Assembly (NCBI GenBank): GCA_963717935.1
Contig: CAVQXP010000004.1
Location: 1,440,001 to 1,504,000 of the forward strand
Direction: 5' to 3'
DNA: 64,000 nucleotides
Source: Candidatus Eiseniibacteriota bacterium
GTDB taxonomy: Bacteria; Eisenbacteria; RBG-16-71-46
A program made the translations under genes and the position numbers. Shown piece by piece: positions 17,947 through 58,480 of this stretch. Numbering within the stretch: the stretch's first letter is position 1; the number at the start of each line of letters is the position of its first letter. The notes under the pieces were generated by a model, which saw only the letters and a program-made list of their open reading frames with translations, was not told the DNA's origin and did not search any database.

Positions 17947-19184
17947 AGGTCCTCGTCATCAACTCCGGATCCTCGTCCGTCAAGTACCAGCTCATCGAGA
18001 CCTCGCTCGAGTTGATCGAGCAGGACGCCGACCACGCCATCGCCCGCGGCTCGGTGGAGCGCATCGGGACGTCGAGCGCCGTCCACACCTACCGCCCGGC
18101 GGGGCGGGACAAGGTGAGCGTGGTCAAGGAGATCCTCGAGCACCGGGTGGCGATCGCCGAGATCATCCAGACGCTCACCGCCCCGAAGACCGGCGTGATC
18201 CACGAGGTCGCGGAGATCGAGGCGGTGGGCCACCGCATGGTGCATGGCGGCGAGAAGTTCACGCAGTCGGCCCTGTGCACGCCCGAGGTGGTCCAGGAGA
18301 TCGAGGACTGTTGCGAACTGGCGCCGCTGCACAACCCGCACAACCTGCGCGGCTACCACGCGGCCCGGCAGATCCTGCCCGACGTGCCGCACGCGGCGGT
18401 GTTCGACACCTCCTACCACCAGACCATGCCGCCGTACGCCTACCTGTACGGCCTGCCCTACGTGCTCTACACGCGGCACGGCATCCGGCGCTACGGCTTC
18501 CACGGCACCTCGCACCGCTTCGTGGGCTGGCGCTCCCGCAAGCTGCTGGGGCGGCCGCGCGAGGAGACGCGCCTGATCACCTGTCACCTGGGCAACGGCG
18601 CCAGCATCTGCGCGATCGACCACGGGCGCTCGGTGGACACCTCGATGGGCTTCACGCCCCTCGAGGGGCTGCTCATGGGCACGCGCTGCGGTGACCTCGA
18701 CCCGGCAGTCCTCTTCTACGTGATGCACAAGGAGGACCTGACCGAGTACGAGGGCAGCACCATGCTGAACAAGCACTCGGGCCTGTTCGGCGTCTCGGGC
18801 CTGTCGAACGACATGCTCGAACTGGAGAAGGCCGAGGCGCAGGGGCACGAGCGCGCGAAGCTCGCCATCGACATCTTCTGCTACCGCGTGAGGAAGTACA
18901 TCGGTGCCTACGCCGCGGCCATGGGCGGCGTGGACGCGATCATCTTCACGGGCGGCATCGGCGAGAACTCGTCGATCGTGCGCGCCCGCTCGATGGCGGG
19001 GCTCGAGTTCATGGGCGCCAGCCTCGACCCGGCGGGCAACGAAGCCGCGGTGAAGGGCAAGGAGGCCGACATCTCGACCGCGGACGCGAAGGTGCGCACG
19101 CTCGTCATCCCCACGAACGAGGAGTTGATCATCGCCCGCGACACGCTGCGGCTGATGAAGGGGAAGCTTCAGCCGACGGGGTGA
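17943..19184 (+). CDS. ackA: Acetate kinase
   Basis: [58 protein letters not shown] overlap with hbd. Confidence 0.95.
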
Positions 19185-44654: not shown

Positions 44655-47330
44655 TTGCACCCGCTCGACCGCATCTTCAGGCCCCAGCGCATCGCGCTGA
44701 TCGGCGCCTCGCAGAACCCGAAGAGCGTCTCGGGCACGGTGCTCAAGAACCTGGTCGGCTCGGGCTTCCGCGGGGTGGTCTACCCCGTGAACCCCGCGCA
44801 CGAGTCGGTGCTCGGCGTGCAGTGCTGGCCGGGCCTCGGTGACCTGCCGCGCACGCCGGACTTGGCCGTGATCTGCTCGCCGGCCGGCGAGGTGCCCGAC
44901 GTGGTGCGGGCCTGCGGGGAGGCGGGCATCCGCGGCCTGGTCATCATCTCGGCGGGGTTCCGCGAGACCGGGCCCGCGGGCGCGGCGCTCGAGCAGCGCG
45001 TGCGCGCCGAGATGCGGCGCTTCGACGGGATGCGCGTGCTGGGGCCCAACTGCCTGGGCTTCATCGTCCCGGAGGCGAGCCTCAACGTCACCTTCGCGCA
45101 CGGCATGCCGAAGGCCGGCAGCATCGCCTTCATCTCGCAGTCGGGCGCGCTCTGTACCTCGGTGCTCGACTGGGCGCTCGAGCAGGGGCTGGGCTTCTCG
45201 CACTTCGTCTCGGTCGGCAACCTGCTGGACGTGGACTTCGGCGACCTCATCGACTACCTGGGCGAGGACGAGAGCACCCGCTCCATCCTGCTCTACATCG
45301 AGTCGCTGACCAACGCGCGCAAGTTCCTGAGCGCCGCGCGGGCCTTCGCCCTGGGCAAGCCGATCGTCGCCTACAAGGCCGGCCGTTTCCCCGAGTCCGC
45401 GAAGGCCGCCGCCTCGCACACCGGCGCGCTGGCCTCGGAGGACGAGGTCTTCGACGCCGCGTTCGCGCGCGCCGGCGTAGTGCGCGTCTACGAGATCGCC
45501 GACATCTTCAACGTCGCGGGGCTCGTGGGACGCTACCGCAGCCCGGCCGGCCCGCGGCTGGGCATCGTCACCAACGCCGGCGGGCCCGGCGTGATGGCGA
45601 CCGACGCCCTCATCGCGCGGCGCGGCGCGCTGGCGGACCTCGCCCCGGCGACGATCGCGGCCCTGGACGAGAACCTGCCGCCCGCCTGGTCGCACGGCAA
45701 CCCCGTGGACGTGCTGGGCGACGCCAACTCGAAACGCTACGCGAAGGCCGCCGAGATCGTGGCGGCCGATCGGGGCGTGGACGCGGTGCTGGCCATCCTC
45801 ACGCCCCAGGCCATGACCAACCCGACCGCGACCGCGATGGAGCTGGGCGCCCTGGCGGGGAAGGTGAAGAAGCCCGTGCTCGCCTCGTGGATGGGCGGGG
45901 CCGGCATGCGCGAGGGCGTGCAGGTCCTGGCTCGCGCCGGCGTGGCGACCTACGACACGCCCGACGAGGCGGTGCAGGCCTTCATGACGCTGGTCACCTA
46001 CGCGCGGAACCTGGAGACGCTGTACGAGACGCCCCGCGACATCCCGGTCGAGTTCCCGCTCGACCGGCAGGCGCTCAAGTCGCGCTTCGCCTCGCTGGTG
46101 CCGGCCGAGGGCGACACCCTCTCCGAAGCCGCGTCGAAGACCGTGCTCGAGGCCTACGGCATCCCGGTCGCGCGGCCCGTGCCGGCGGCGGGCGCGGACG
46201 AGGCCGTGCGGGTCGCGGCGGACCTGGGCTACCCGGTGGTTCTCAAGCTCGACTCGCCCGACATCACCCACAAGAGCGACGTGGGTGGCGTGGCGCTGGA
46301 CCTGGAGAGCGCGGACGAGGTGCGCGCGGCCTACGAGCGCATCGTCGCCGGGGCACGGCGGGCGCGGCCCGAGGCGCGCGTCGCCGGTGTGACCGTGCAG
46401 CGCATGGTGCACTCGCGCGACGGGCTCGAGCTGATCGTCGGCGCGCGTCAGGATCCGGTGTTCGGGACCGTGATGCTGGCCGGCATGGGAGGTGTCGCCG
46501 CCGAGGTGCTGCGGGACCGGTCGCTGGGATTGCCGCCGCTCAACGAGCGGCTCGCCCGCCGCATGCTCGAGTCGCTGCGGGCCTGGCCGCTCCTGCAGGG
46601 CTACCGCGGGCGGCCCGGCGTGAACCTGGACCGGCTCATCGAGGCCCTGATGCGCGTTTCGTACCTGGTGGCCGATCACCCCGGGATCAAGGAGCTCGAC
46701 GTCAACCCGCTGCTCGCCACGCCGCACGAGGTCATCGCGCTCGACGCGCGCATCATCGTGGATCGCGAGCGGCTGGCGCACCCGGGGAAGCCGTACTCCC
46801 ACCTGGCGCTGCGGCCCTATCCCGAGGAGCTCGAGCGCCACGTCTCGCTCCCCGACGGCGAGCGGCTGCTGCTGCGGCCCATCCGGCCCGAGGACGAGCC
46901 GCACTGGATGGCGATGCTGGCCGCCTGTTCGCGCGAGACCCTCTACATGCGCTTCCGCTACATGTTCCAGTGGGCTACCCACGAGGCCGCCATGCGCTAC
47001 TGCTTCACCGACTACGACCGCGAGATCGCCATCGTGGCCGAGCGCGAGGGTGGCGAGCCGCGGTTGGTGGGTGTGGGGCGGCTCGTGGCCGAGCCCGAGC
47101 ACGAAGCCGCCGAGTACGCCGTGCTGGTGAGCGATGCCTGGCAGAACCGGGGCCTGGGCGGCGTGCTGACCGACGCCTGCGAGGAGATCGCGCGCGGCTG
47201 GGGTCTCAAGCGCATGGAGGCCCAGACCACCGCCGACAACGCGCGCATGCTGGCGCTGTTCAAGAAGCGCGGCTACACGGTCGAGCCCGACGAGGAAGGG
47301 CTGATGAAGGTGACGAAGGAGTTGCGGTAG
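44655..47330 (+). CDS. NDP-forming acyl-CoA synthetase-like / GNAT fusion (Pat-type lysine acetyltransferase)
   Basis: GPNCLG, SQSGA, ASHTG, TNAGG, NPVD, HKSDVGGV, C-terminal GNAT (DYDREIA, QNRGLG); TTG start 1 nt after the MFS stop. Confidence 0.9.
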   Translation: MHPLDRIFRPQRIALIGASQNPKSVSGTVLKNLVGSGFRGVVYPVNPAHESVLGVQCWPGLGDLPRTPDLAVICSPAGEVPDVVRACGEAGIRGLVIISAGFRETGPAGAALEQRVRAEMRRFDGMRVLGPNCLGFIVPEASLNVTFAHGMPKAGSIAFISQSGALCTSVLDWALEQGLGFSHFVSVGNLLDVDFGDLIDYLGEDESTRSILLYIESLTNARKFLSAARAFALGKPIVAYKAGRFPESAKAAASHTGALASEDEVFDAAFARAGVVRVYEIADIFNVAGLVGRYRSPAGPRLGIVTNAGGPGVMATDALIARRGALADLAPATIAALDENLPPAWSHGNPVDVLGDANSKRYAKAAEIVAADRGVDAVLAILTPQAMTNPTATAMELGALAGKVKKPVLASWMGGAGMREGVQVLARAGVATYDTPDEAVQAFMTLVTYARNLETLYETPRDIPVEFPLDRQALKSRFASLVPAEGDTLSEAASKTVLEAYGIPVARPVPAAGADEAVRVAADLGYPVVLKLDSPDITHKSDVGGVALDLESADEVRAAYERIVAGARRARPEARVAGVTVQRMVHSRDGLELIVGARQDPVFGTVMLAGMGGVAAEVLRDRSLGLPPLNERLARRMLESLRAWPLLQGYRGRPGVNLDRLIEALMRVSYLVADHPGIKELDVNPLLATPHEVIALDARIIVDRERLAHPGKPYSHLALRPYPEELERHVSLPDGERLLLRPIRPEDEPHWMAMLAACSRETLYMRFRYMFQWATHEAAMRYCFTDYDREIAIVAEREGGEPRLVGVGRLVAEPEHEAAEYAVLVSDAWQNRGLGGVLTDACEEIARGWGLKRMEAQTTADNARMLALFKKRGYTVEPDEEGLMKVTKELR

Positions 47331-48983: not shown

Positions 48984-50445
48984 ACTCGCTCGTCACGAAC
49001 CTCGTGCGGCGCGTCGTTGCGGCGTGCATCGGGCTCGCGCTGGTCGTGGGAGCGGGGTTCGCCGCGGACGCGCCCCTCGACCGCACGAAGCCCCCGACGC
49101 TCGGCCCGCTCAAGCCGCTGAAGGTGCCCGTGGTGCAGACGCAGACGCTCGCCAACGGGCTCCAGTTGGCGGTCGTCGAGATGCACGAGGTCCCGGTCGT
49201 GGACTGCCTGCTGCTCGTGCGGGCCGGCGCGGCCTACGACCCGCAGGGGAGCCCCGGGCTCGCCACCTTCGTCGCGGGCATGCTCGACGAGGGCGCCGGC
49301 AAGCGCAGCGCGCTGGAGATCTCCGAGGAGGCCGACTACCTCGGGCGCGCAGTTCGGCACGGGCGCCGGGATGGAGAACGCGCAGATCGAGCCTGCACGT
49401 TCCCAGGGCGCGCCTGGAGGCGGCGCTCGACCTGATGGCCGACGTCGCACTGCGGCCGGCGTTCCCCGATTCGGAGATCGCCCGGCAGCGGGAGCTCCGG
49501 AAGAACAGCATCCTCCAGCTGCGCGACCAGCCCACGGCCATGGCGCCCCTCGCGCTCCATGCCATCCTCTTCGGTGCGGCGCACCCGTACGGACACTCGC
49601 AGGTGGGGAACGAAGCCTCGACGGCGGCGCTGGACCGCGCCCGGGTCACGCGCTTCTACGAGACCCATTACCGCCCGGCGAACGCGAAGCTCCTGTTCGT
49701 GGGGGACATCACCCCGGCCGAGGCCCGGAAGCTCGCCGAGGCCCGCTTCGGCGGCTGGTCGAAGGGCGAAGCGCCAGCCCCGCGGACGGGCGTCGTCGCG
49801 CCGCCGGCCGGACGCACGTTCTACCTCGTGGACAAGCCGGGGGCGCCGCAGTCGGTCATCATGATCGGCAACGTCGGCGTGCCGCGCTCCACGCCGGACT
49901 ACTATGCGTTGCGGGTGATGAACAACCTCCTGGGAGGGTCGTTCACCTCGCGGCTCATGCAGAACCTGCGCGAGCTGCACGGCTACACCTACGGTGCGCG
50001 CTCGTACTTCGACATGTACCAGCAGGCCGGGCCGTTCCGCGCCGCGTCCTCGGTGCACACGGCGAAGACCGACAGCGCGCTGATCGAGTTCTTCCGGGAG
50101 TTGCGCCGCATCCGCGACGAACCGGTGCCGGCGGAGGAACTGGCCAAGTCGAAGGCCTACATCGCGCTCGGTCTGCCGGGCGAGTTCGAGACCACGCAGG
50201 GGGCGGCCGGCCGGTTCCTCGACCTGCTCGCCTACGATCTCCCGCTGGATTCCTACGACTCGTTCATCGAGCGGATCCAGGCCGTGACGGCCGAGGACGT
50301 GCAGCGGGTGGCGAGGCAGTACATAACCCCGGACCAGTTCACGGTGGTGGTGGTGGGCGATCGCAGCCAGATCGAGGCCCCCATCAAGGCCCTGAACGAG
50401 GGGCCGGTCGAGCTGCGCGACCTGTGGGGGCAGCCGGCGCAGTAG
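48980..50445 (+). CDS. M16B peptidase partner subunit, exported; two apparent +1 indels (~49344, ~49389)
   Basis: Signal peptide, LANGL, no HxxEH, HPYG, GGSFTSRLMQNLRELHGYTYG; ATGA overlap with the upstream gene. Confidence 0.85.
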
Positions 50446-50453
50446 CGCGTCGA

Positions 50454-50536
50454 GGACCGCGGAGCGCAGACGCGCCGTGGTGGCCGAGCGCATGGTGCCT
50501 CTGCTCGGCCACTACGGTGCGCGAGCCCCGCGGTCC
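50454..50536 (+). other. Long intergenic hairpin after the M16 pair
   Basis: 18-bp inner stem 50472-50489/50503-50520 (two G-U pairs) within GGACCGCGG/CCGCGGTCC. Confidence 0.55.
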
Positions 50537-50621
50537 GGGCGCTCGCAGGGAAGACGACGGCCCGGGATACCCAGACGCTCGCTGCCCGGGTCCCGTGCGC
50601 CGTCACCAGAAGCCAGAGCGT

Positions 50622-50662
50622 GGCCCCGTAGCTCGGATGGATAGAGCAGCGGTTTCCTGACC
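50622..50662 (+). pseudogene. tRNA-Arg(CCT) 5' half (no T-arm or 3' acceptor strand)
   Basis: GGCCCCG-TA-GCTC-GGATGGATA-GAGC-A-GCGGT-TTCCT, after which similarity is lost. Confidence 0.65.
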
Positions 50663-50693
50663 ATGGGCTGAGGCGGCCGCCTCCCGGACGCAC

Positions 50694-50725
50694 GAAGGCC
50701 CCGCGGCGCCAGCCGCAGGGCCTTT
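50694..50725 (-). terminator. Hairpin downstream of kbl
   Basis: AAGGCCC.GCGGC-loop-GCCGC.GGGCCTT. Confidence 0.35.
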
Positions 50726-50743
50726 GCGCAATGACCGCCCCCG

Positions 50744-51991
50744 CTACATCCCGTACTTCTCGATGATCTGCTGCTTGTTGAGTCCCAGGATGCCGTACTT
50801 GGCGCCGACCTTCTTGAACGCCGCGATGCCCTTGTCGAGGTGGTGCTGCTCGTGCGCGGCCGAGAGCTGCGTGCGGATGCGCGCCTGCGCCTTCGCCACG
50901 ACCGGGAAGAAGAAGCCGACGACGTAGATGCCCTCGGCGAACAGGTCGCGTGCCACGTCCTGCGCCAGCTTGGCGTTGTAGAGCATCACCGGCACGATCG
51001 GGCTCTCGCCCTTCTTGATGTCGAAACCGGCCTCGGTGAGGAGCTTGCGCCAGTAGGTGGTGTTCCACTCGAGCTTGTCGCGCCGCTCGGTGGTGGCCGA
51101 GATCAGGTCCAGCACCTTGAGCGCGCCCTCGACGATGACCGGTGCCACGGTGTTCGAGAACAGGTAGGGCCGCGCCCGCTGGCGGCACATCTCCACCAGC
51201 TCGCGCCGTCCGCTCACGCAGCCGCCGGAGGCCCCGCCGAGGGCCTTGCCGAGCGTGGTGGTGATGATGTCGATCCGGCCGACCACGCCGCAGTGCTCGT
51301 GCGTGCCGCGGCCGGTCTTCCCGATGAAGCCCGAGGAGTGCGAGTCGTCCACGAACACCATGGCGTCGTACTTCTCGGCCAGCGCGACGATCCCGTCGAG
51401 CTTGGCGATGTCGCCGTCCATCGAGAAGACGCCGTCGGTGATGATCATGCGGAAGCGCTTGTCCTGGTGCTCGACGAGCTTCTCCTCGAGGTGGCCCAGG
51501 TCGGAGTGCTTGTAGGTGTCCTGCATCGCCTTGCACAGCCGCATGCCGTCCACGATCGAGGCGTGCACGAGGCGGTCGGAGATCATCACGTCCTGATCGC
51601 CCAGGATGGCCTCGAACACGCCGGCGTTGGCGTCCATGCAGGAGGGGAAGAGCAGCGTGTCCTCCGTGCCGAGGAACGCGGTCAGCTTCTGCTCCAGCTC
51701 GCGGTGGATGTCCTGGGTGCCGCAGATGAAGCGCACCGACGACATGCCGTAGCCGCGGTGGTCGAGCCCCTTGTGCGCGGCCGCCACGACCTCGGGGTGA
51801 CTCGAGAGGCCGAGGTAGTTGTTCGCGCACAGGTTGATGACCTTGTGGCCGCCGCTGCCGACCGGGAACTCGACCTCGATGTCGGCGCCCTGCGGCGAGT
51901 GGATGAAGCGCTCCTCCTTGAACAAACCCTGCTCGCGGAGGCCTTTCAGCTCGGTCTGGTAGTGCTCGCGGACCCTGTCGGCATAACCCAT
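50744..51991 (-). CDS. kbl: Glycine C-acetyltransferase (2-amino-3-ketobutyrate CoA ligase), alpha-oxoamine synthase family
   Basis: CANNYLG, MSSVRFICGTQDIH, SCMDAN, HASIVDG, FSMDG, TLGKALGGASGG, RQRARPYLFSN, ARIRTQLSA. Confidence 0.9.
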   Translation of the reverse strand: MGYADRVREHYQTELKGLREQGLFKEERFIHSPQGADIEVEFPVGSGGHKVINLCANNYLGLSSHPEVVAAAHKGLDHRGYGMSSVRFICGTQDIHRELEQKLTAFLGTEDTLLFPSCMDANAGVFEAILGDQDVMISDRLVHASIVDGMRLCKAMQDTYKHSDLGHLEEKLVEHQDKRFRMIITDGVFSMDGDIAKLDGIVALAEKYDAMVFVDDSHSSGFIGKTGRGTHEHCGVVGRIDIITTTLGKALGGASGGCVSGRRELVEMCRQRARPYLFSNTVAPVIVEGALKVLDLISATTERRDKLEWNTTYWRKLLTEAGFDIKKGESPIVPVMLYNAKLAQDVARDLFAEGIYVVGFFFPVVAKAQARIRTQLSAAHEQHHLDKGIAAFKKVGAKYGILGLNKQQIIEKYGM

Positions 51992-51994
51992 GGC

Positions 51995-52249
51995 TCAGCC
52001 CTTCTGCTGGAAGCGGGTGACCAGCGCGGCGATGCTGTTGACGTTGTCGAAGGCCTGCGGGCTGGCGTCGGCGTCGGGGATCTTGATGCTGAACTTGCGC
52101 TCGAGGAAGCGCTTGAGCGAGACCATCGAGAAGGAGTCCACGATGCCGCCGGTGATGAGCGGTGAGGCCTCGTTGATGACGCGGTCGTCATCCTCCTCGA
52201 GGTACTCCTTCTTCACGTAGTCGAGGATCAGCTGCTTGAGCTCGTCCAT
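51995..52249 (-). CDS. Acyl carrier protein
   Basis: 84-aa acidic protein; GIVDSFSMV phosphopantetheine-attachment Ser. Confidence 0.9.
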   Translation of the reverse strand: MDELKQLILDYVKKEYLEEDDDRVINEASPLITGGIVDSFSMVSLKRFLERKFSIKIPDADASPQAFDNVNSIAALVTRFQQKG

Positions 52250-52301
52250 GGGTCTCTCCTGTGGGTTTGGGGCGCGGCCCGCGGGTCGCGGGTCTGTGCG
52301 T

Positions 52302-54005
52302 TCAGTCGTCCATCACGGTGGAGATGTCGCCGACCGGCTCGCCCCACTCCTGGGCCCGCAGGATGCGGCGCACGATCTTGCCGCTGCGGGTCTTGGGGAG
52401 GGCGTCCACGAACTCGATCTCCTGCGGCATGGCCAGCGGCGAGAGCCGCTTGCGGATGAAGTTCATGATCTCCAACTCGAGGTCCTCGTCCGCCTGGAAG
52501 GTGGGCTTGACCACCACGAAGGCCTTCACCACCTCCATGTTCACCGGGTCGGGCTTGGCGACCGCGGCCGACTCGGCCACGGCCGGGTGCTCGAGCAGCG
52601 CCGACTCGATCTCGAACGGGCCGACCAGGTGGCCGCCGGTGTTGATGACGTCGTCGTCGCGGCCCACGAACCAGAAGTAGCCGTCGGCGTCGATGCTGGC
52701 GCGGTCGCCCGTCAGGTACCAGCCGTTCTTGAACTTGTTCTCGTAGGCGGTGGGGTTCTGCCAGTAGGAGCGCATCATCGACGGCCAGCCGGGCTTGAGC
52801 GCGATCAGGCCGACGCTGCCGGGATGGCCGACCGGCTCGTAGGTGCGCGGATCGAGCACCGTGGCCGTGATGCCGGGGAAGGGCTTGCCCATCGAGCCGG
52901 GCTTGATCGGCATCCCGGGGAAGTTGGTGATGACCATGCAGCCGGTCTCGGTCTGCCAGTAGGTGTCGTGGAACATGATGCCGAAGGCTTCCTTCGACCA
53001 GAGCACGGCCTCGGCGTTGAGCGGCTCGCCCACGCTCGCCAGGTGGCGCAGCGCGGAGAGGTCGAACTTGCGCGCGGCCTCGGCGCCCTCGCGCATGAGC
53101 AGGCGGATGGCGGTGGGGGCGGAGTACCAGACGCTCACGCGGTGCTTCTGCATGAAGGCGTACCAGCGCTCGGCGACGAAGCCCGAGTCGAGCACGACCT
53201 GGGTGACGCCGTTGGCCCAGGGCCCGATGATGCCGTAGGAGGTGCCCGTGACCCAGCCGGGGTCCGCATTGCACCAGTAGACGTCCTCCGGCTTGAGGTC
53301 GAGCACCCACTTGCTGGTCAGGTACTGCGAGACCAGCGAGGAGTGCACGTGCTGCGCGCCCTTGGGCTGCCCCGTCGTGCCCGAGGTGTAGTGCAGCACC
53401 GAAGGCGTCTCGGCGAGGGCGGGGTAGGCCTCGAACGACTCGACTCGCGGCTCCTGGTCCAGCGCCAGCGGCACCTCGCGCGCCTGCAGGGGCGGGCCCT
53501 CGGCGCCGTCCACCACGATGATGTGGCGCAGCCCGGGCAACGAGTCGCGGATCTTGCGGACCTTGGCCACGTGCTTGCGCTGGGTCAGGATGGCCGCGGT
53601 CTGCGCGTTGTCGAGGCGCGTGTGCAGCGACTCGTCGCCGAAGGCCGAGAACAGCGGCTGGACGATCCCGCCCATCTTGAGCACGCCGAGGAAGCCCAGG
53701 TAGAGCTCGGGGATGCGGTCCATGAAGAGGCAGATGCGCTCGCCGGGCTTCAGTCCCAGCCGCTGCAGGTAGGCCGCGATCGTGTTGGAGAGCACGCGCA
53801 GGTCGTCGTAGGTGTAGGTGCGCGCGTCGCCTGAGCCGCCCTCCCAGATGAGGGCGGGTTTCGCGGCCGACCCGAGCTGGCAGATGCGGTCGCTGCAGTA
53901 CCAGCCGATGTTGATGGGGTCGCCCCGGCGCCAGCCCAGCTCCTTTTCGGCGTTCGCCCAGTCGAACTGCTTCAGCCGCTCCTCGTACGAGTTCGCGTCG
54001 CTCAT
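52302..54005 (-). CDS. acsA: AMP-forming acetate--CoA ligase (AcsA type)
   Basis: [45 protein letters not shown]. Confidence 0.88.
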
Positions 54006-54418
54006 GTGCTGCGTCCTCTCTCCAACGGTGGGGGGTGCACGGAGGTTTCGAGGACCACGGCGGCGGCCGCCAGGTCCCGGGTGTGCGTGAGTGAGACGAA
54101 CAGGCTGCCGGCGAGGCGATCTCCGGCCAGTGCCGCGAGCCGGCCGTGCAGCGTCAGGCGTGGTGCGCCCGATGGCGCGCGCCGCACCTCCACTTCGCGC
54201 CACGAGGCGCCGTCACGATGCCCGGCGCCCAGGGCCTTGAACGCGGCCTCCTTGGCCGCGAAACGCGCGGCGTAGTGCCGGGCCGGGAAGCGCTCGGCCT
54301 CGCAATCGGCGATCTCGCCGGGGGTGAAGAGCCCGGCGACGAAGTCCCGCGGGTCACGCCGGAGTTCCCGCTCCATGCGCGCCACCTCGAGCACGTCCAC
54401 GCCGATCCCGACGATCAT
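54002..54418 (-). CDS. acpS: Holo-ACP synthase
   Basis: [31 protein letters not shown] overlap with acsA. Confidence 0.92.
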
Positions 54419-54593
54419 CGCTTTCCGGTCCCAGCCCTGCCGGGCCCGCTCCCTGGTACGAAAATACCCTCACACGACCATCCGCCCACGCAGGCGCGGG
54501 CGGGTCGGCTGGACATGGTGGCCCGGCCGGGCGGGGGAGTCAAACCGACCCCGGGACCCGCCGACGCGCCGGACGGGAGCCGCGAGGATTTCC

Positions 54594-54622
54594 TTCTCAC
54601 GTGGCCGCCGACTTCCTAGAAT
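54594..54622 (+). promoter_or_regulatory. Putative promoter of the DRG-like GTPase (leaderless geometry)
   Basis: TTCTCA-17 nt-TAGAAT, 7 nt before ATG 54630. Confidence 0.5.
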
Positions 54623-54629
54623 GGAGCCC

Positions 54630-55622
54630 ATGCCCGCGAATCTGACGCCCCAGTACCGTGAAGCCGAGGAGCGCTTCCGCGAAGCCGGGACCCACGAAGA
54701 GAAGCTGGTCGCGCTGCGCGAGATGATGGCGCTCCTGCCCAAGCACAAAGGCACGGAGAAGCTGCAGGCCGATCTCCGCCGCCGCCTCGCGAAGCTTGAA
54801 GAGGAGGCCGAGCACGGTGCCCGGGGCGGTGCGCGCCGCGTCGACCCCGGGCATGTGCGCCGCGAGGGCGCGGGGCAGTGGGTCCTGATCGGACCGCCGA
54901 ATGCCGGCAAGTCGGCGCTGCTCGCCGCCCTCACGCACGCGCATCCCGAGGTGGCGCCGTATCCCTTCACCACGCACGCCCCGCAGCCGGGCATGATGCC
55001 TTTCGAGGACGTGCAGGTGCAGCTCGTGGACACGCCGGCCGTGGCCGCGCAGCACACCGAGCCCTACATGGCGAACCTCGTGCGCAACGCCGACGGTGTG
55101 CTGGTGGTGCTCGACCCCACGGCGGACGACCTGGGGGAGTCGCTGGCCGCCTGCCACGGGCTGGTCGAGCGCGCTCGGGTGTGGCCGCGCGCGAAGCCCC
55201 TGCCGCCCGACGCCTCGCCGCTCCTGGTGGTGCGCCCGGTCCACGTGGTCCTCAACAAGTCCGACCTCGACGGCGATGGCACGTTCGCGACCCTGGCGCG
55301 CGAGTCGGTCGGGGATGAGCTGCCCGTATTCTTCATCTCCGCCGAGCACGGCCACGGGCTCGAGGAGCTGCGCGGGCGGCTCTTCGGCGACCTCGGCCGC
55401 ATTCGCATCTACGCCAAGGAGCCGGGCAAGAAGCCGGACTTCGCGCGGCCCTTCGTGCTGGAGGCCGACGCGACGGTCCACGACCTCGCCCGCGTGGTCC
55501 ACAAGGAGATCGCCGAGAACCTCCGCTTTGCGCGCATCTGGGGTCATGCGCGCTTCGGCGGCCAGCAGGTGGACCGCGACCACGTGCTGGCCGACCGGGA
55601 CGTGGTCGAACTGCACGCCTGA
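54630..55622 (+). CDS. DRG-like (Obg family) GTPase with TGS domain
   Basis: MPANLTPQY, PKHKGTEK, GPPNAGKS, YPFTT, DTP, NKSD; C-terminal TGS (DHVLADRDVVELH). Confidence 0.87.
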   Translation: MPANLTPQYREAEERFREAGTHEEKLVALREMMALLPKHKGTEKLQADLRRRLAKLEEEAEHGARGGARRVDPGHVRREGAGQWVLIGPPNAGKSALLAALTHAHPEVAPYPFTTHAPQPGMMPFEDVQVQLVDTPAVAAQHTEPYMANLVRNADGVLVVLDPTADDLGESLAACHGLVERARVWPRAKPLPPDASPLLVVRPVHVVLNKSDLDGDGTFATLARESVGDELPVFFISAEHGHGLEELRGRLFGDLGRIRIYAKEPGKKPDFARPFVLEADATVHDLARVVHKEIAENLRFARIWGHARFGGQQVDRDHVLADRDVVELHA

Positions 55623-55723
55623 CGCGTGGTCCGGAGCCGGACGCGGCGTCCGGTCATGGTGATGATGACCCGGCGCCCGCGAGGCCGCGGGGACGCCGGG
55701 TCATCTCTGTCGCGCTCTGGCGC

Positions 55724-58480
55724 TCAGTGCCCGCGCAGGTCCTCGAGCAGCTCGCGCTCGACCGCCGGCAGCTGGTGCACGGGCTGCCACGTGGCGATGC
55801 TCGCGCGGAAGGTCCACTCGGGGGGCGCGCGGTTCGCGATGCGCTCCCGGACCGGCGCCCACGCGGCGGCGGCGGCCGCCGCGTTCCCGGCGCGCTGCTC
55901 GGCGCCGCCCAGCACGATGCGCGCGAGGTCCGACCACGGGCCCCACTCCAGCGCCCGCCCGGCGTGCGACCGCGCGGCCGCGACCTCTCCGGTCCGCAGC
56001 GCGAGCAGTCCGCGCAGCGCCTCGGCGGTCGGATCGCCTTCGTCGAGCAGTCTCGCCTCGTCGAGTTGTCCACGGGCCGCGTCGGGCCGCCCCGCGCGCA
56101 GCAGGTCGAAGGCGTAGTCGCAGCGCAGGTCCACCACGCCGGTGCGCAGCCGCACGGCCTTGTCGTACTCCGCGAAGGCATCGTCCCAACGTCCTGCCAG
56201 AGCCAGACTTGAGGCGCGGGCCCGCAGCCCCTCCGGGCTGTCGGACTGGCGCGCGAGAACCGAGTCGGCCGCCGCCAGCGCCGCGGCCGCGTCTCCACGG
56301 ACCCACGCCAGGCGCGCGATCTCGAGGTCCACGAGACGACGGTCGTCGTCGCGCACGTCGGAGCGCATCTTCGCGGCCAGCGCGAGCGCGGAGTCGAGCC
56401 CGCGGCCCCCGTGCCAGGTGGCTTCGGCCGCCTCCGCCACGATGGCACCGCTGGCCGGCAGGGTTGCGAGCGCCCGGTCGGCGGCGGCCAGCATCTCGGG
56501 GCCGCGGTTGCCAAGGTCGAGCGCGCGCGTGAGTGACAGCAACGCGTACTCCTCGTCGGACTTCAGGGTCAGTGCCCTCTGGTAGAAGGGCACGGCCTGG
56601 TCCACCTCGCCGCGCCAGAGGCGATCGTCACCCGCGTTGACGTAAGCCACCGGGTAGCTCGCGTTCACGTCGGTCAGGGCCATGAGCCGCTCGACGAGCG
56701 CCTTCAAGTCGGCGTCCTTGCGCTCGAGCCGGCTGAGCACCTCGGGGCGCGGGTCGTAGGCGTCGCGATCCACGGAGAGCAGGGCATTGGCCCCTTCGGC
56801 GAGGTACTCCTCCACGGCGACGGCGGCGTAGCGGGAGATGAACGCATCGTGGGTCACCTCGTCGCGCGCCTTCGTCCTGCGATAGAGGTCCTGGATCTCC
56901 CGGGACTGGTCCGCCGTGAGCACCGCATGAACCTGGTGGGTCAGCTCGTGCAGGACGGTGTTGTACCTGGCGAAGATCGTCGCCTCGACGTCCTCGATGC
57001 CCGTGACCGTGTGGTAGCCGCCCGAGCCGCGCACGTCGTCCCAGAGGCGCGAGTCGTAGCTGATGCGCTGGTCCTTGAGCGTCTCCTGTCCCGGGACCTC
57101 CGAGAGCAGCATGTACATGGGCTTGATGTAGAAGTCGGCTCCGCCCGCGAGCAGCACGGGGATGAACCGCTGCCAGGGCGCGATGGACAGGGCCACGCGC
57201 TTCTGGTGGCGCGGTGAGAGCGACTTCCAGTTCACGACGAAGCGCTCGATGCCCGCCACCTCGGGCACGGGCGCGGCGGCCAGTCGCGCCTCGTAGCCGG
57301 GGCGGTGCACGTCCACGTCGAAGCGCTGGAACTGGAGCGCCTTGGCGAGGATGGCGTGGCCGCGGCCGTACTCGGGGCAGATGTGGAGCGCCGCGAAACA
57401 CCGGTCGCGCGCGGCGTCGAAGCGGCCGTCCTCGAAGTCGAGCGAAGCCAGCCGCGCGAGCGGGTCCACCCAGCCGGGATGCGCACGGCACACGGCCTCG
57501 TACGCGACGCGCGCGCCGGGGCGGTCGCCGGCGCCGAGCAGGCTGTCGGCGCGGGCCAGCACGCGTCGTCCGGCCGCGTCCGCGAAGGCGTGCGGGTAGG
57601 CGGCGTACAGTTGCGTGTAGTTCCTGCGCACGGTGTAGCCGTTTCCCCGGAGGTAGTGCGCCATGTCGGAGTAGGGGTTCAGCAGGGTGCCCCACTCGGC
57701 CGCGCTGATCGCCTCGTCGGTGCGCCCGACCCGCAGCAGCGCCTGAGCCAGGACCGTCATGGCGTCGCCGCAGGCGTTCGCCCCGACCGCCCTGAGCGCG
57801 GCGGCGAGCGCGCCGTCCCAATCCCGACGCCCGAACCTCACCTGCGTGAGCCCGATCAGGGCCGTGTCGCGGGCGGCTTGGACGTAGCGGCGCCCGGCGG
57901 CCTGCTTCGGCTGCGGTTGTCCGGTGCGCTCGAGCGCGCGGGAGTAGCAGGACTCGGCCCGCGCGAACCGCATCAGACCGCAGGCCAGGCGGCCCGCGGC
58001 GAGCAGGTCGGGGATGCTGGCGTGTTCGGCGGGCGTGGTGAGCGCGCCGCGGGTCAGCGAGTCCACTCGCGCCACGTCGTCGTGCGCGAAGAGCCAGGCG
58101 AGGACGGCCTCGCGCTCTTCCTGGGTCGGATCCGGCTGCGCGGCGATGTTCGCGAACAGCGGCGCGGCGGTGACGAAGTCCTGGCGGGCGAGGAGTGCGC
58201 GCGCCTTCACCACCGTCTCCTCGCGCGCCTCGCCCGTGAGGCGCGGCAGCGATCGGCACGCCTCGTCGATCCTGCCCGTGGCGAGAAGCAGCCGGAGCCG
58301 CCCGGGCGTCACGGGGCCCCTGGCCTGCGTCTCGAGCTGCGCGAGCCGCGCCCGGTACTGCGCCGCCACCGGCGCGAAGAGCCCGGTGTCCGCGGGGGCC
58401 TGGGCCCGCGCGTTCGCGGAAAGCGGGAGTGCCGCGGCAGTGCACATGGCCACGGTGCCGCACAGCAACGCGATCCTCAT
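55724..58480 (-). CDS. Exported TPR protein with central HExxH zinc-peptidase domain (~918 aa)
   Basis: Signal peptide ending ARA, TPR-like Ala-rich repeats, WDDVRGSGG, NTVLHELTHQVH, EEYLAEG. Confidence 0.75.
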   Translation of the reverse strand: MRIALLCGTVAMCTAAALPLSANARAQAPADTGLFAPVAAQYRARLAQLETQARGPVTPGRLRLLLATGRIDEACRSLPRLTGEAREETVVKARALLARQDFVTAAPLFANIAAQPDPTQEEREAVLAWLFAHDDVARVDSLTRGALTTPAEHASIPDLLAAGRLACGLMRFARAESCYSRALERTGQPQPKQAAGRRYVQAARDTALIGLTQVRFGRRDWDGALAAALRAVGANACGDAMTVLAQALLRVGRTDEAISAAEWGTLLNPYSDMAHYLRGNGYTVRRNYTQLYAAYPHAFADAAGRRVLARADSLLGAGDRPGARVAYEAVCRAHPGWVDPLARLASLDFEDGRFDAARDRCFAALHICPEYGRGHAILAKALQFQRFDVDVHRPGYEARLAAAPVPEVAGIERFVVNWKSLSPRHQKRVALSIAPWQRFIPVLLAGGADFYIKPMYMLLSEVPGQETLKDQRISYDSRLWDDVRGSGGYHTVTGIEDVEATIFARYNTVLHELTHQVHAVLTADQSREIQDLYRRTKARDEVTHDAFISRYAAVAVEEYLAEGANALLSVDRDAYDPRPEVLSRLERKDADLKALVERLMALTDVNASYPVAYVNAGDDRLWRGEVDQAVPFYQRALTLKSDEEYALLSLTRALDLGNRGPEMLAAADRALATLPASGAIVAEAAEATWHGGRGLDSALALAAKMRSDVRDDDRRLVDLEIARLAWVRGDAAAALAAADSVLARQSDSPEGLRARASSLALAGRWDDAFAEYDKAVRLRTGVVDLRCDYAFDLLRAGRPDAARGQLDEARLLDEGDPTAEALRGLLALRTGEVAAARSHAGRALEWGPWSDLARIVLGGAEQRAGNAAAAAAAWAPVRERIANRAPPEWTFRASIATWQPVHQLPAVERELLEDLRGH

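Follow-up and report, generated by a model that had tools for sequence, protein, structure and literature searches.

A conserved acpS-ligase-carrier-kbl cassette that may exchange acetyl groups with glycine on a private carrier protein

The stretch of DNA analysed here (the window; 64,000 nucleotides, C4:1440001-1504000 of a Candidatus Eiseniibacteriota assembly of 3.0 Mb in 5 contigs that is 93% complete) carries a cassette of four genes on its minus strand. The first gene, acpS (54002-54418), encodes a holo-[acyl-carrier-protein] synthase of 138 amino acids, recognised by TIGR00516 and the Pfam family ACPS. It is followed by a gene for an AcsA-type, AMP-forming adenylating ligase (52302-54008; 568 amino acids from the ATG at 54008), which matches NF003313 and is proposed here to be an acetate:carrier ligase. 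The third gene (51995-52249) encodes a stand-alone carrier protein of 84 amino acids, identified by its similarity to solved carriers, with the attachment motif VDSFSM at Ser39. The last gene, kbl (50744-51991), encodes an alpha-oxoamine synthase of the Kbl family (415 amino acids), assigned by TIGR01822 and placed by a tree in a carrier-linked clade. An earlier note, made from the sequence of the window alone, had described these genes as tightly coupled, and the junctions read in the sequence are those that it gave: acpS and the ligase gene overlap in an ATGA, 52 nt separate the ligase gene from the carrier gene, and 3 nt separate the carrier gene from kbl. An alternative, longer GTG frame of the ligase extends into acpS and is without alignment support. 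The cassette is bounded by divergent and convergent genes, with a TGS-domain GTPase upstream and M16 peptidases downstream. For one protein encoded near the cassette, the closest relatives, 95% and 93% identical, come from metagenome-assembled genomes (MAGs) that bear the label Candidatus Eisenbacteria.

The analysis drew on three overlapping sets of loci. The first set comprised the best 80 of at least 472 carrier-related stretches in a collection with one genome per species. The second set, 80 loci retrieved with a second carrier query, was mostly from Bacteroidota, with Aminicenantes, Delongbacteria and Zixibacteria, and the third set consisted of 120 rows from a motif scan. A Kbl gene was found 3' of the carrier gene, less than 1 kb away and on the same strand, in 79 of the 80 first-set loci; the remaining locus ends 89 nt past the carrier. 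The median gap between the two genes was 49 nt, making this pair the tightest link in the cassette. Of the 73 loci with at least 1900 nt of room, 65 had the ligase gene no more than 300 nt upstream of the carrier gene, 3 had it at a greater distance upstream and 5 lacked it; acpS was located at most 300 nt upstream of the ligase gene in 55 of the 66 loci with room. Where unrelated genes separate other parts of the cassette, carrier and Kbl genes stay together, and of 5 genomes checked in which the ligase is unlinked, 3 encode a cassette-type ligase (69-72% identical) at another site. Since this order recurs across related loci, the arrangement is more than chance, and the core idea of the earlier note, a carrier-dependent pathway acting on glycine, withstands the comparison of gene order on which it had been made to depend. 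Mean pairwise identity was 0.78 for Kbl, 0.74 for the ligase, 0.70 for the carrier and 0.46 for AcpS. The identity matrices of the cassette proteins correlate with one another (r 0.70-0.85), a pattern that fits joint inheritance or transfer of the cassette genes.

AcpS scored 86.8 bits against TIGR00516, for which the cut-off is 59.8. The carrier protein matches solved stand-alone peptidyl, prolyl and D-alanyl carriers with the serine aligned (6cxt_A, E 4e-10), and carriers that are loaded by stand-alone adenylating enzymes (PltL, PigG, DltC and Bmp1) resemble it. Its best match in NCBIfam, ACP_for_OlsHI, is below threshold (57 bits against a cut-off of 130), and nothing on the cassette was found in the literature on the OlsH carrier. 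The DSF motif around the attachment serine is invariant in 67 aligned carriers, D38 and S39 included, and in these same 67 sequences a stretch of 17 residues around Ser39 is invariant across the labelled phyla. Among the ESM Atlas neighbours of the carrier, 35-54% of members bear PF00550.

The ligase scored 746 bits against NF003313, the model for acetate--CoA ligase, which is barely over the cut-off of 729, and 566 bits against the solved chain 9g79. The motifs GWVTG, SVGEP and WQTETG are present. W309, V310, T311, V386 and W414 (E. coli numbering), which we take to be the residues of the acetate pocket, are kept in 63 of 64 cassette ligases, as are the hinge aspartate and G524; the A10 lysine (K544 in the ligase of the window) is kept in all 64. 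The PCP-like character of the carrier had suggested glycine or another amino acid as the substrate of the ligase, an idea that was set aside with the hydrophobic acetate pocket intact. Proteins matching NF003313 in the genomes sampled from this phylum fall into three classes: carrier-less AcsA-type enzymes score 913-933 bits, cassette-type ligases 735-780 bits and class I Acs about 480-560 bits. The tallies from this sample (Kbl, tdh and the NF003313 classes) include one genome, G015, that is flagged as unpublished and on which no claim depends. The cassette ligases have loop residues of their own, and at the A8 position Arg526 is replaced by leucine (L461 in the ligase of the window) in 63 of 64, compared with arginine in 10 of 10 carrier-less AcsA-type enzymes and 3 of 3 class I enzymes. 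This arginine is described as stabilising the thioester-forming conformation (PMC10455477), and its replacement by leucine would plausibly alter the thiol half-reaction. In a FastTree analysis of 77 ligase rows the carrier-less classes remain clades. The deviating ligase row, L034, sits on a branch 2.76 long and was probably mis-extracted.

The cassette Kbl scored 586.8 bits against TIGR01822 (cut-off 493) and also passed NF005394 (cut-off 460); tdh-linked Kbls from the same phylum scored about 610-700 bits. It is 55% identical to E. coli Kbl (1fc4, 477 bits). Scores remained below the cut-offs for the SPT model (NF047600, 322.4 bits against 640) and for BioF (TIGR00858, 353.5 bits against 426.45). 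As the genome encodes no oxoamine synthase besides the cassette Kbl, a role in biotin synthesis was considered, and rejected: its BioF score is below the cut-off, and E. coli queries gave only weak matches to bioA, bioB and bioD in the 93% complete genome.

A quick IQ-TREE phylogeny of 92 Kbl rows was built from cassette Kbls, 15 tdh-linked Kbls including that of E. coli, and 6 members of a third class, also tdh-linked. All 69 carrier-adjacent Kbls group together in a single clade inside the Kbl family (SH-aLRT 100, stem 0.94), and two flank paralogs that fall outside this clade were left out of the residue count. The 69 cassette Kbls differ from the 15 tdh-linked Kbls by the fixed changes N135V, A133R, T254V, L264C, S268A, L298R and F309W (E. 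coli numbering), of which N135V adjoins the residue aligned with E. coli His136. In the Kbl of the window the signature reads R140, V142, D158, H167, H175, V259, C269, A273, R303 and W314. Compared with tdh-linked Kbls, cassette Kbls also have a short insertion near residue 40 and a conserved C-terminal tail of about 13 amino acids. Insertion and tail are not unique to the cassette, as both are also seen in one tdh-linked Kbl (L109) and in paralogs that lie downstream in loci of the Delongbacteria type. The tdh-linked residue pattern (N135, L264, S268, L298 and F309, with neither insertion nor tail) was not found in cassette Kbls, and the co-operonic second Kbls of Bacteroidales retain the canonical residue pattern.

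K249, H143, D215, H218 and R371 align to 1fc4 and do not vary among 67 cassette Kbls; we take them to be the lysine that binds pyridoxal 5'-phosphate (PLP), the ring-stacking histidine, the Asp/His pair and the carboxylate-binding arginine. The role of the carboxylate-binding arginine is also described in PMC11906848. The glycine-selecting residue V86, equivalent to Val79 of ThAOS, is invariant in the same 67 proteins, and the description in that source has this valine conserved in all KBL enzymes and determining amino-acid selectivity (PMC11906848). The assignments in the earlier note of a phosphopantetheinyl transferase, an adenylating enzyme with acetate-pocket motifs, a DSF carrier and a Kbl-like synthase with a short C-terminal tail are thus borne out by family scores, matches to solved carriers and alignment, and the comparison with canonical Kbls for which it had called places the carrier-linked enzymes in a clade of their own.

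That note had also proposed modelling the carrier together with Kbl. A predicted complex of two Kbl chains and the carrier scored 0.57, with 0.00 for the best of 3 controls; the runs agreed in at least 77% of contacts and the pLDDT of the partner was at least 83. In the benchmark for this score, 116 of 157 solved complexes and 2 of 215 mismatched pairs attained the mark, and among those passing, scores of 0.60 or less were obtained by only 18 of the 157 solved complexes and by both of the mismatches. The prediction is graded as weak support for a Kbl-carrier interaction.

We judge it fairly probable that the cassette operates a private acetyl-carrier, with the overall reaction acetate + ATP + glycine <=> 2-amino-3-oxobutanoate + AMP + PPi. 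AcpS would put phosphopantetheine on Ser39 of the carrier. The ligase would form acetyl-AMP from acetate and ATP and would then transfer the acetyl group to the carrier thiol and not to CoA. The Kbl-like PLP enzyme would interconvert acetyl-S-carrier and glycine with 2-amino-3-oxobutanoate and HS-carrier, and an unlinked threonine dehydrogenase would provide the coupling to threonine. That the ligase and Kbl both work on the carrier, with acetyl as the acyl group, is our inference. A private carrier would separate its acetyl pool from the acetyl-CoA/CoA ratio of the cell, and because the carrier would be private, the net chemistry of the three proteins would be restricted to the interconversion of acetate and glycine with 2-amino-3-oxobutanoate.

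Several observations weigh against this proposal. Shared ancestry and joint transfer alone would give the correlated identities, the carrier has no Pfam match (PP-binding, PF00550) at E <= 0.001, and the support from the complex prediction is weak. A dedicated phosphopantetheinyl transferase is not universal among five genomes checked, as G206 has a single acpS, located outside the cassette, and in G209 the cassette acpS is the sole copy; the three others have two acpS genes. No Zn-type tdh was seen in G037 and G041, two carrier holders of this phylum. In loci where a canonical Kbl accompanies the cassette, the two together would amount to a roundabout way of turning acetate and acetyl-CoA into one another, for which the proposal as such offers no explanation. 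The ligase and Kbl both exceed the NCBI equivalog cut-offs for CoA-dependent enzymes, and R584, which contacts the 3'-phosphate of CoA, is kept in 63 of 64 cassette ligases. The ligase is also the only Acs-like gene found in the genome (the next matches are 24-35% identical), so that it may also have to make acetyl-CoA.

The equivalog scores, the retention of R584 and of the A10 lysine, and the lack of another Acs-like gene would equally suit an ordinary CoA-dependent Acs and an ordinary glycine C-acetyltransferase that partners Tdh; in that case AcpS and the carrier would be otherwise employed, for instance in regulation, or idle. The same can be said of the cassette Kbl being the only Kbl, beside a tdh, both here and in G032, a complete relative, and of acpS, which can be a housekeeping gene given that the cassette copy is the only AcpS-type gene found in G209. 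We nevertheless regard this explanation as unlikely. In 65 of 73 loci the carrier gene is enclosed by those of the two enzymes, and in 79 of 80 Kbl comes after it; the carrier has a core of 17 residues that does not vary; both enzymes belong to carrier-linked subfamilies, distinct from the carrier-less ones in the phylum; and Arg526 is replaced by leucine in 63 of 64 ligases. The presence of a canonical and a cassette Kbl in one operon, seen in 39 of 80 second-set loci, also argues against redundancy.

The genes that neighbour the cassette in other genomes bear on the pathway in which it may act. The earlier note, finding no tdh in the window, had set a link to threonine aside; none is indeed present within the 64 kb, but the link is reinstated by other lineages, in which tdh, a canonical kbl or both are co-linear with the cassette. 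Co-linear tdh genes were found at L023 and L080 (2 of 80 loci in the first set), at L393 (1 of 80 in the second set) and at L327, where the order is tdh, kbl, ligase, carrier, cassette kbl. Of 5 further cassette genomes, 4 have a Zn-type tdh that is not linked to the cassette. The present genome has a single tdh-like gene (C4:2053837-2054854), which lies about 563 kb from the cassette and reads in two frames; the tdh of G032 is likewise unlinked, and is intact. In these two genomes no Kbl match other than the cassette Kbl was seen, while sister genera have adjacent tdh-kbl pairs. A second acpS-like gene (C4:1157406-1157775) also reads in two frames, and a further AMP-ligase (C2:99004-100588) is likewise split over two overlapping frames; given that all three genes are affected, assembly indels are a likelier cause than three pseudogenes. 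A need for alternative threonine synthesis was considered and is not supported, thrC being present in the genome.

In 39 of the 80 second-set loci the cassette is accompanied by a co-linear Kbl gene of canonical signature, upstream of acpS in 34 of 62 with room and downstream in 5 of 67. L330, a low-GC locus from Bacteroidales, has such a co-operonic canonical Kbl. In the phylum sample, a Kbl scoring at least 612 bits was found in 2 of 26 strong carrier holders compared with 91 of 175 non-holders. Mutual exclusion of canonical and cassette Kbl was tried as a general rule; as we read the phylum sample it applies there, but it fails in the second set, where those 39 loci hold both.

Clustering of open reading frames (ORFs) places a gene of the SatP family of acetate channels (GPR1/FUN34/YaaH) after the cassette, on its strand, in 32 of 80 second-set loci, and tblastn does so in 44 of 80; an example, in the set L330-L409, is L358:1971-2732, directly after the cassette kbl. 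No SatP-family gene was found in the 80 first-set loci or in the present genome. A further recurrent neighbour, outside the core of the cassette, is a Pat-like protein and possible regulator of the ligase, which is encoded in the window on the plus strand (44655-47330), 3.4 kb from the cassette. It combines an NDP-forming acyl-CoA-synthetase-like domain with a GNAT domain, the C-terminal part matching Pat, and scored 510.9 bits against TIGR02717, below the cut-off of 567.15. Pat-like homologues were present in 13 of 80 second-set loci and in 1 of 80 first-set loci, and in L009 the Pat-like gene abuts kbl. The protein may acetylate the A10 lysine of the ligase. Independently of the reading of the active sites, these neighbours point to acetate, to 2-amino-3-oxobutanoate or glycine, and to a ligase regulated by acetylation.

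The Pat-like GNAT also opens a different possibility, that the acetyl-carrier feeds a third enzyme encoded elsewhere, such as this GNAT itself, and that Kbl is merely a co-regulated neighbour. Its recurrence in the second set, its position in the window and its contact with kbl in L009 could be taken that way, and carrier-dependent GNATs are reported to exist (PMC11685415). We consider this very improbable: the carrier-Kbl link, seen in 79 of 80 loci and with a gap of only 49 nt at the median, is the tightest in the cassette and is kept where the ligase is unlinked, and the Pat-like gene is absent from most loci.

Within the proposed private acetyl-carrier system, the reaction may run toward glycine acetylation or toward 2-amino-3-oxobutanoate cleavage. 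The earlier note had a short acid loaded on a private carrier and condensed with glycine; the acid, the carrier and glycine are supported by gene order, by the two subfamilies, by the acetate pocket, by the invariant valine and by the SatP genes, but the direction may instead be that of cleavage. Condensation is favoured by three pieces of background: the conversion of ATP to AMP and PPi is the usual drive for such ligases, SatP-family proteins are known as acetate importers, and Pat-type control is known for acetate activation. Cleavage is favoured by this genome and G032, each with an unlinked tdh and no Kbl match other than the cassette one, in contrast to the adjacent tdh-kbl pairs of the sister genera, and by the membrane pyrophosphatase homologues of the genome. 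A canonical Kbl in the operon would also be sensible if the intermediate were split between a CoA pool and a carrier pool, and it counts on the same side. By analogy, so does Acs1 of Syntrophus aciditrophicus, described as an AMP-forming Acs that runs toward ATP, which it makes with AMP and PPi from a thioester, with its bias set by the thiol-binding loop (PMC13404658); as that source presents it, Acs1 differs from the cassette in using acetyl-CoA and in having no carrier. We lean at most slightly toward cleavage.

If cleavage prevails, the cassette could form a CoA-independent, ATP-conserving branch of threonine breakdown, a possibility that we put forward tentatively and consider rather unlikely. 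Tdh would make 2-amino-3-oxobutanoate, which the cassette Kbl would cleave with the carrier thiol to glycine and acetyl-S-carrier. The ligase would then run in reverse, converting acetyl-S-carrier, AMP and PPi to acetate and ATP, and acetate would exit via SatP where the gene is present. A high ratio of acetyl-thioester to thiol on the carrier would drive ATP formation apart from the acetyl-CoA pool, and a co-operonic canonical Kbl would supply biosynthetic acetyl-CoA from the same intermediate. The tdh, kbl and satP neighbours are consistent with this scheme.

The window also encodes, at about 17949-19154 on the plus strand, a homologue of acetate kinase with 44% identity to E. coli AckA, so that the usual route through acetyl-phosphate to acetate and ATP is also available to the organism. 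Two full-length membrane pyrophosphatase homologues were found at C2:455486-457600 and C5:41510-43624. Their scores are near-equal and one lies near a contig end, and the two copies may be one gene assembled twice.

The cassette is present in at least about 480 species-level genomes, and the labels given by the submitters amount to about 22 phylum names over 280 loci. No cultured host was found: the titles of the 80 first-set and 80 second-set loci are all those of MAGs, and the 80 titles examined among the 120 of the motif scan are those of MAGs or single-amplified genomes. Two of the MAGs, L363 and L370, bear the label Draconibacterium orientale. Distribution is patchy both in this phylum, with 28 of 201 sampled genomes (2 of them weak matches) and 5 of 6 in the genus of the window, and in the phylum of an Acidobacteriaceae MAG, with 27 of 251 sampled genomes. 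Phylum labels are intermixed inside the clade of cassette Kbls, which suggests transfer, although the labels of MAGs can be wrong. Near-identical cassette Kbls with different labels were seen in L019 and L020 (Zixibacteria and Ignavibacteriales), in L018 with L013 and L014 (Latescibacterota and Fibrobacter) and in L048 and L051 (Aminicenantes and Chrysiogenales), reflecting either very recent transfer or wrong bin labels.

Patchy distribution and mixed labels, common for accessory genes, together with the fixed changes in the active-site region of Kbl (N135V, A133R, L264C, S268A and T254V), would also suit a cassette making a specialised aminoketone, as a signal or secondary metabolite, from an acyl group that is not acetyl (for instance propionyl or glycolyl), along the lines of oxoamine synthases of the CqsA/LqsA or SxtA type. 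Against this stand an acetate pocket that in 63 of 64 ligases is the same as in acetyl-CoA synthetases, the invariant glycine-selecting valine and very high sequence conservation. The recurrent neighbours are acetate channels, canonical Kbl and tdh, and the flanks hold no conserved tailoring enzyme, exporter or metabolite-cluster regulator. We consider such a product distinctly unlikely. A role in vitamin B6 synthesis, in which a glycolyl-type product would pass to PdxJ, was rejected; neither pdxJ nor pdxA was found in the 93% complete genome, and pdxS is present. The idea had its origin in the pdxJ-acpS operon of E. coli.

The chemistry proposed here, with acetyl as the acyl group and a protein as the thiol partner, has parts in common with several known systems. 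BioF, which can work with pimeloyl-ACP, is an oxoamine synthase that takes an acyl-carrier; it uses the ACP of fatty acid synthesis, and alanine. In citrate lyase and malonate decarboxylase, CitC and MadH carry out the ATP-dependent acetylation of a carrier thiol, but they are not of the ANL family and their carriers bear a different prosthetic group. The cassette resembles the Tdh-Kbl pathway of E. coli in keeping the catalytic residues and the glycine-selecting valine and in having a co-linear tdh in a few loci. It departs from that pathway in the separate clade of its Kbl, with changes near the active site and a tail, in the carrier and ligase that stand beside kbl in place of tdh, and in a proposed thiol partner that is a protein and not CoA.

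AcsA-type acetyl-CoA synthetase is described as regulated by lysine acetylation (PMC11255334). The cassette ligase shares with AcsA (9g79) the acetate pocket and the acetylatable A10 lysine, and a Pat-like acetyltransferase recurs beside the cassette; unlike AcsA, it falls in a lower score class, has leucine at A8 and loop residues of its own, and is always paired with a carrier. The closest parallel in design is the AasR/AcpR/SPT module of sphingolipid synthesis in Caulobacter and other Rhodobacteria, in which, according to the published summary, the ligase acylates only its own carrier and the synthase prefers the acyl-carrier (PMC9386255). Both systems join an ANL-family ligase, a small carrier and an alpha-oxoamine synthase, and the genes co-occur in that module as well. 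The module is described as acting on a long-chain fatty acid and serine to give a lipid precursor, whereas the cassette has an acetate-type ligase, of the AcsA family and not one of the long-chain ligases, and a glycine-type Kbl, includes acpS and is found in other phyla. By this analogy, the cassette is something that would work like the AasR/AcpR/SPT module and is not a member of it. No published description of the cassette was found in the literature, as judged from titles and the beginnings of abstracts.

Annotation pipelines label the four genes as housekeeping acpS, acetyl-CoA synthetase, hypothetical protein and Kbl. Many lineages from sediment, soil and digesters are thereby credited, perhaps wrongly, with acetyl-CoA synthesis and canonical threonine cleavage. 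If the proposed acetyl-carrier exists, one of the textbook CoA-dependent steps of primary metabolism would have a counterpart that runs on a protein, and the design of ligase, private carrier and oxoamine synthase would extend from lipid synthesis to two-carbon and amino-acid metabolism. The cassette would then offer a natural case in which to study the insulation of an acyl pool from CoA, and, were the ligase to run toward ATP, a new kind of module for substrate-level phosphorylation.

Contigs from RNA libraries bridge the junctions of the cassette. X15 record 6 (51626-52353) and X16 record 12 span kbl, carrier and ligase, and X15 record 8 spans ligase and acpS. These contigs came from four metatranscriptome libraries, derive from relatives that are mostly 90-95% alike, and may include DNA carry-over; they fit expression as one unit and leave a single transcript unproven. 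On the minus strand, the scans returned neither a sigma-70 promoter nor an intrinsic terminator for the operon. Directly 3' of the kbl stop, RNA folding revealed a GC-rich hairpin on the same strand (50670-50741), a possible transcript end, with a perfect GC stem of 13 bp, a free energy of -51.7 kcal/mol and a z-score of -3.45; 0 of 200 shuffled sequences were as stable. The hairpin lacks a T-run and would for that reason have been missed by the terminator scan, and it may serve as the terminator of the operon in a high-GC organism. Searches for known RNA elements and riboswitches gave nothing above chance-level rows in positions 50000-56000 of the window (E <= 1) and nothing at gathering scores in 14 related loci.

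In the flanks of the 80 first-set loci, nothing is shared except an ORF of about 101 amino acids after kbl, present in 22 of 80 loci by clustering and in 30 of 80 by tblastn (for example L013:6548-6853 and L015:6711-7016). The ORF has no Pfam or NCBIfam match and is absent from the present genome. Its AlphaFold model (pLDDT 83.7) consists of three helices and a hairpin, with no fold match in the PDB at E <= 0.001. Elsewhere in the assembly, at C2:96000-104500, a second pair of adenylating ligase and PP-binding carrier lies beside genes for asparagine-synthase-like, GNAT-like and family-4 glycosyltransferase proteins; this region looks like a surface-polymer cluster that is unrelated to the acetate-glycine cassette.

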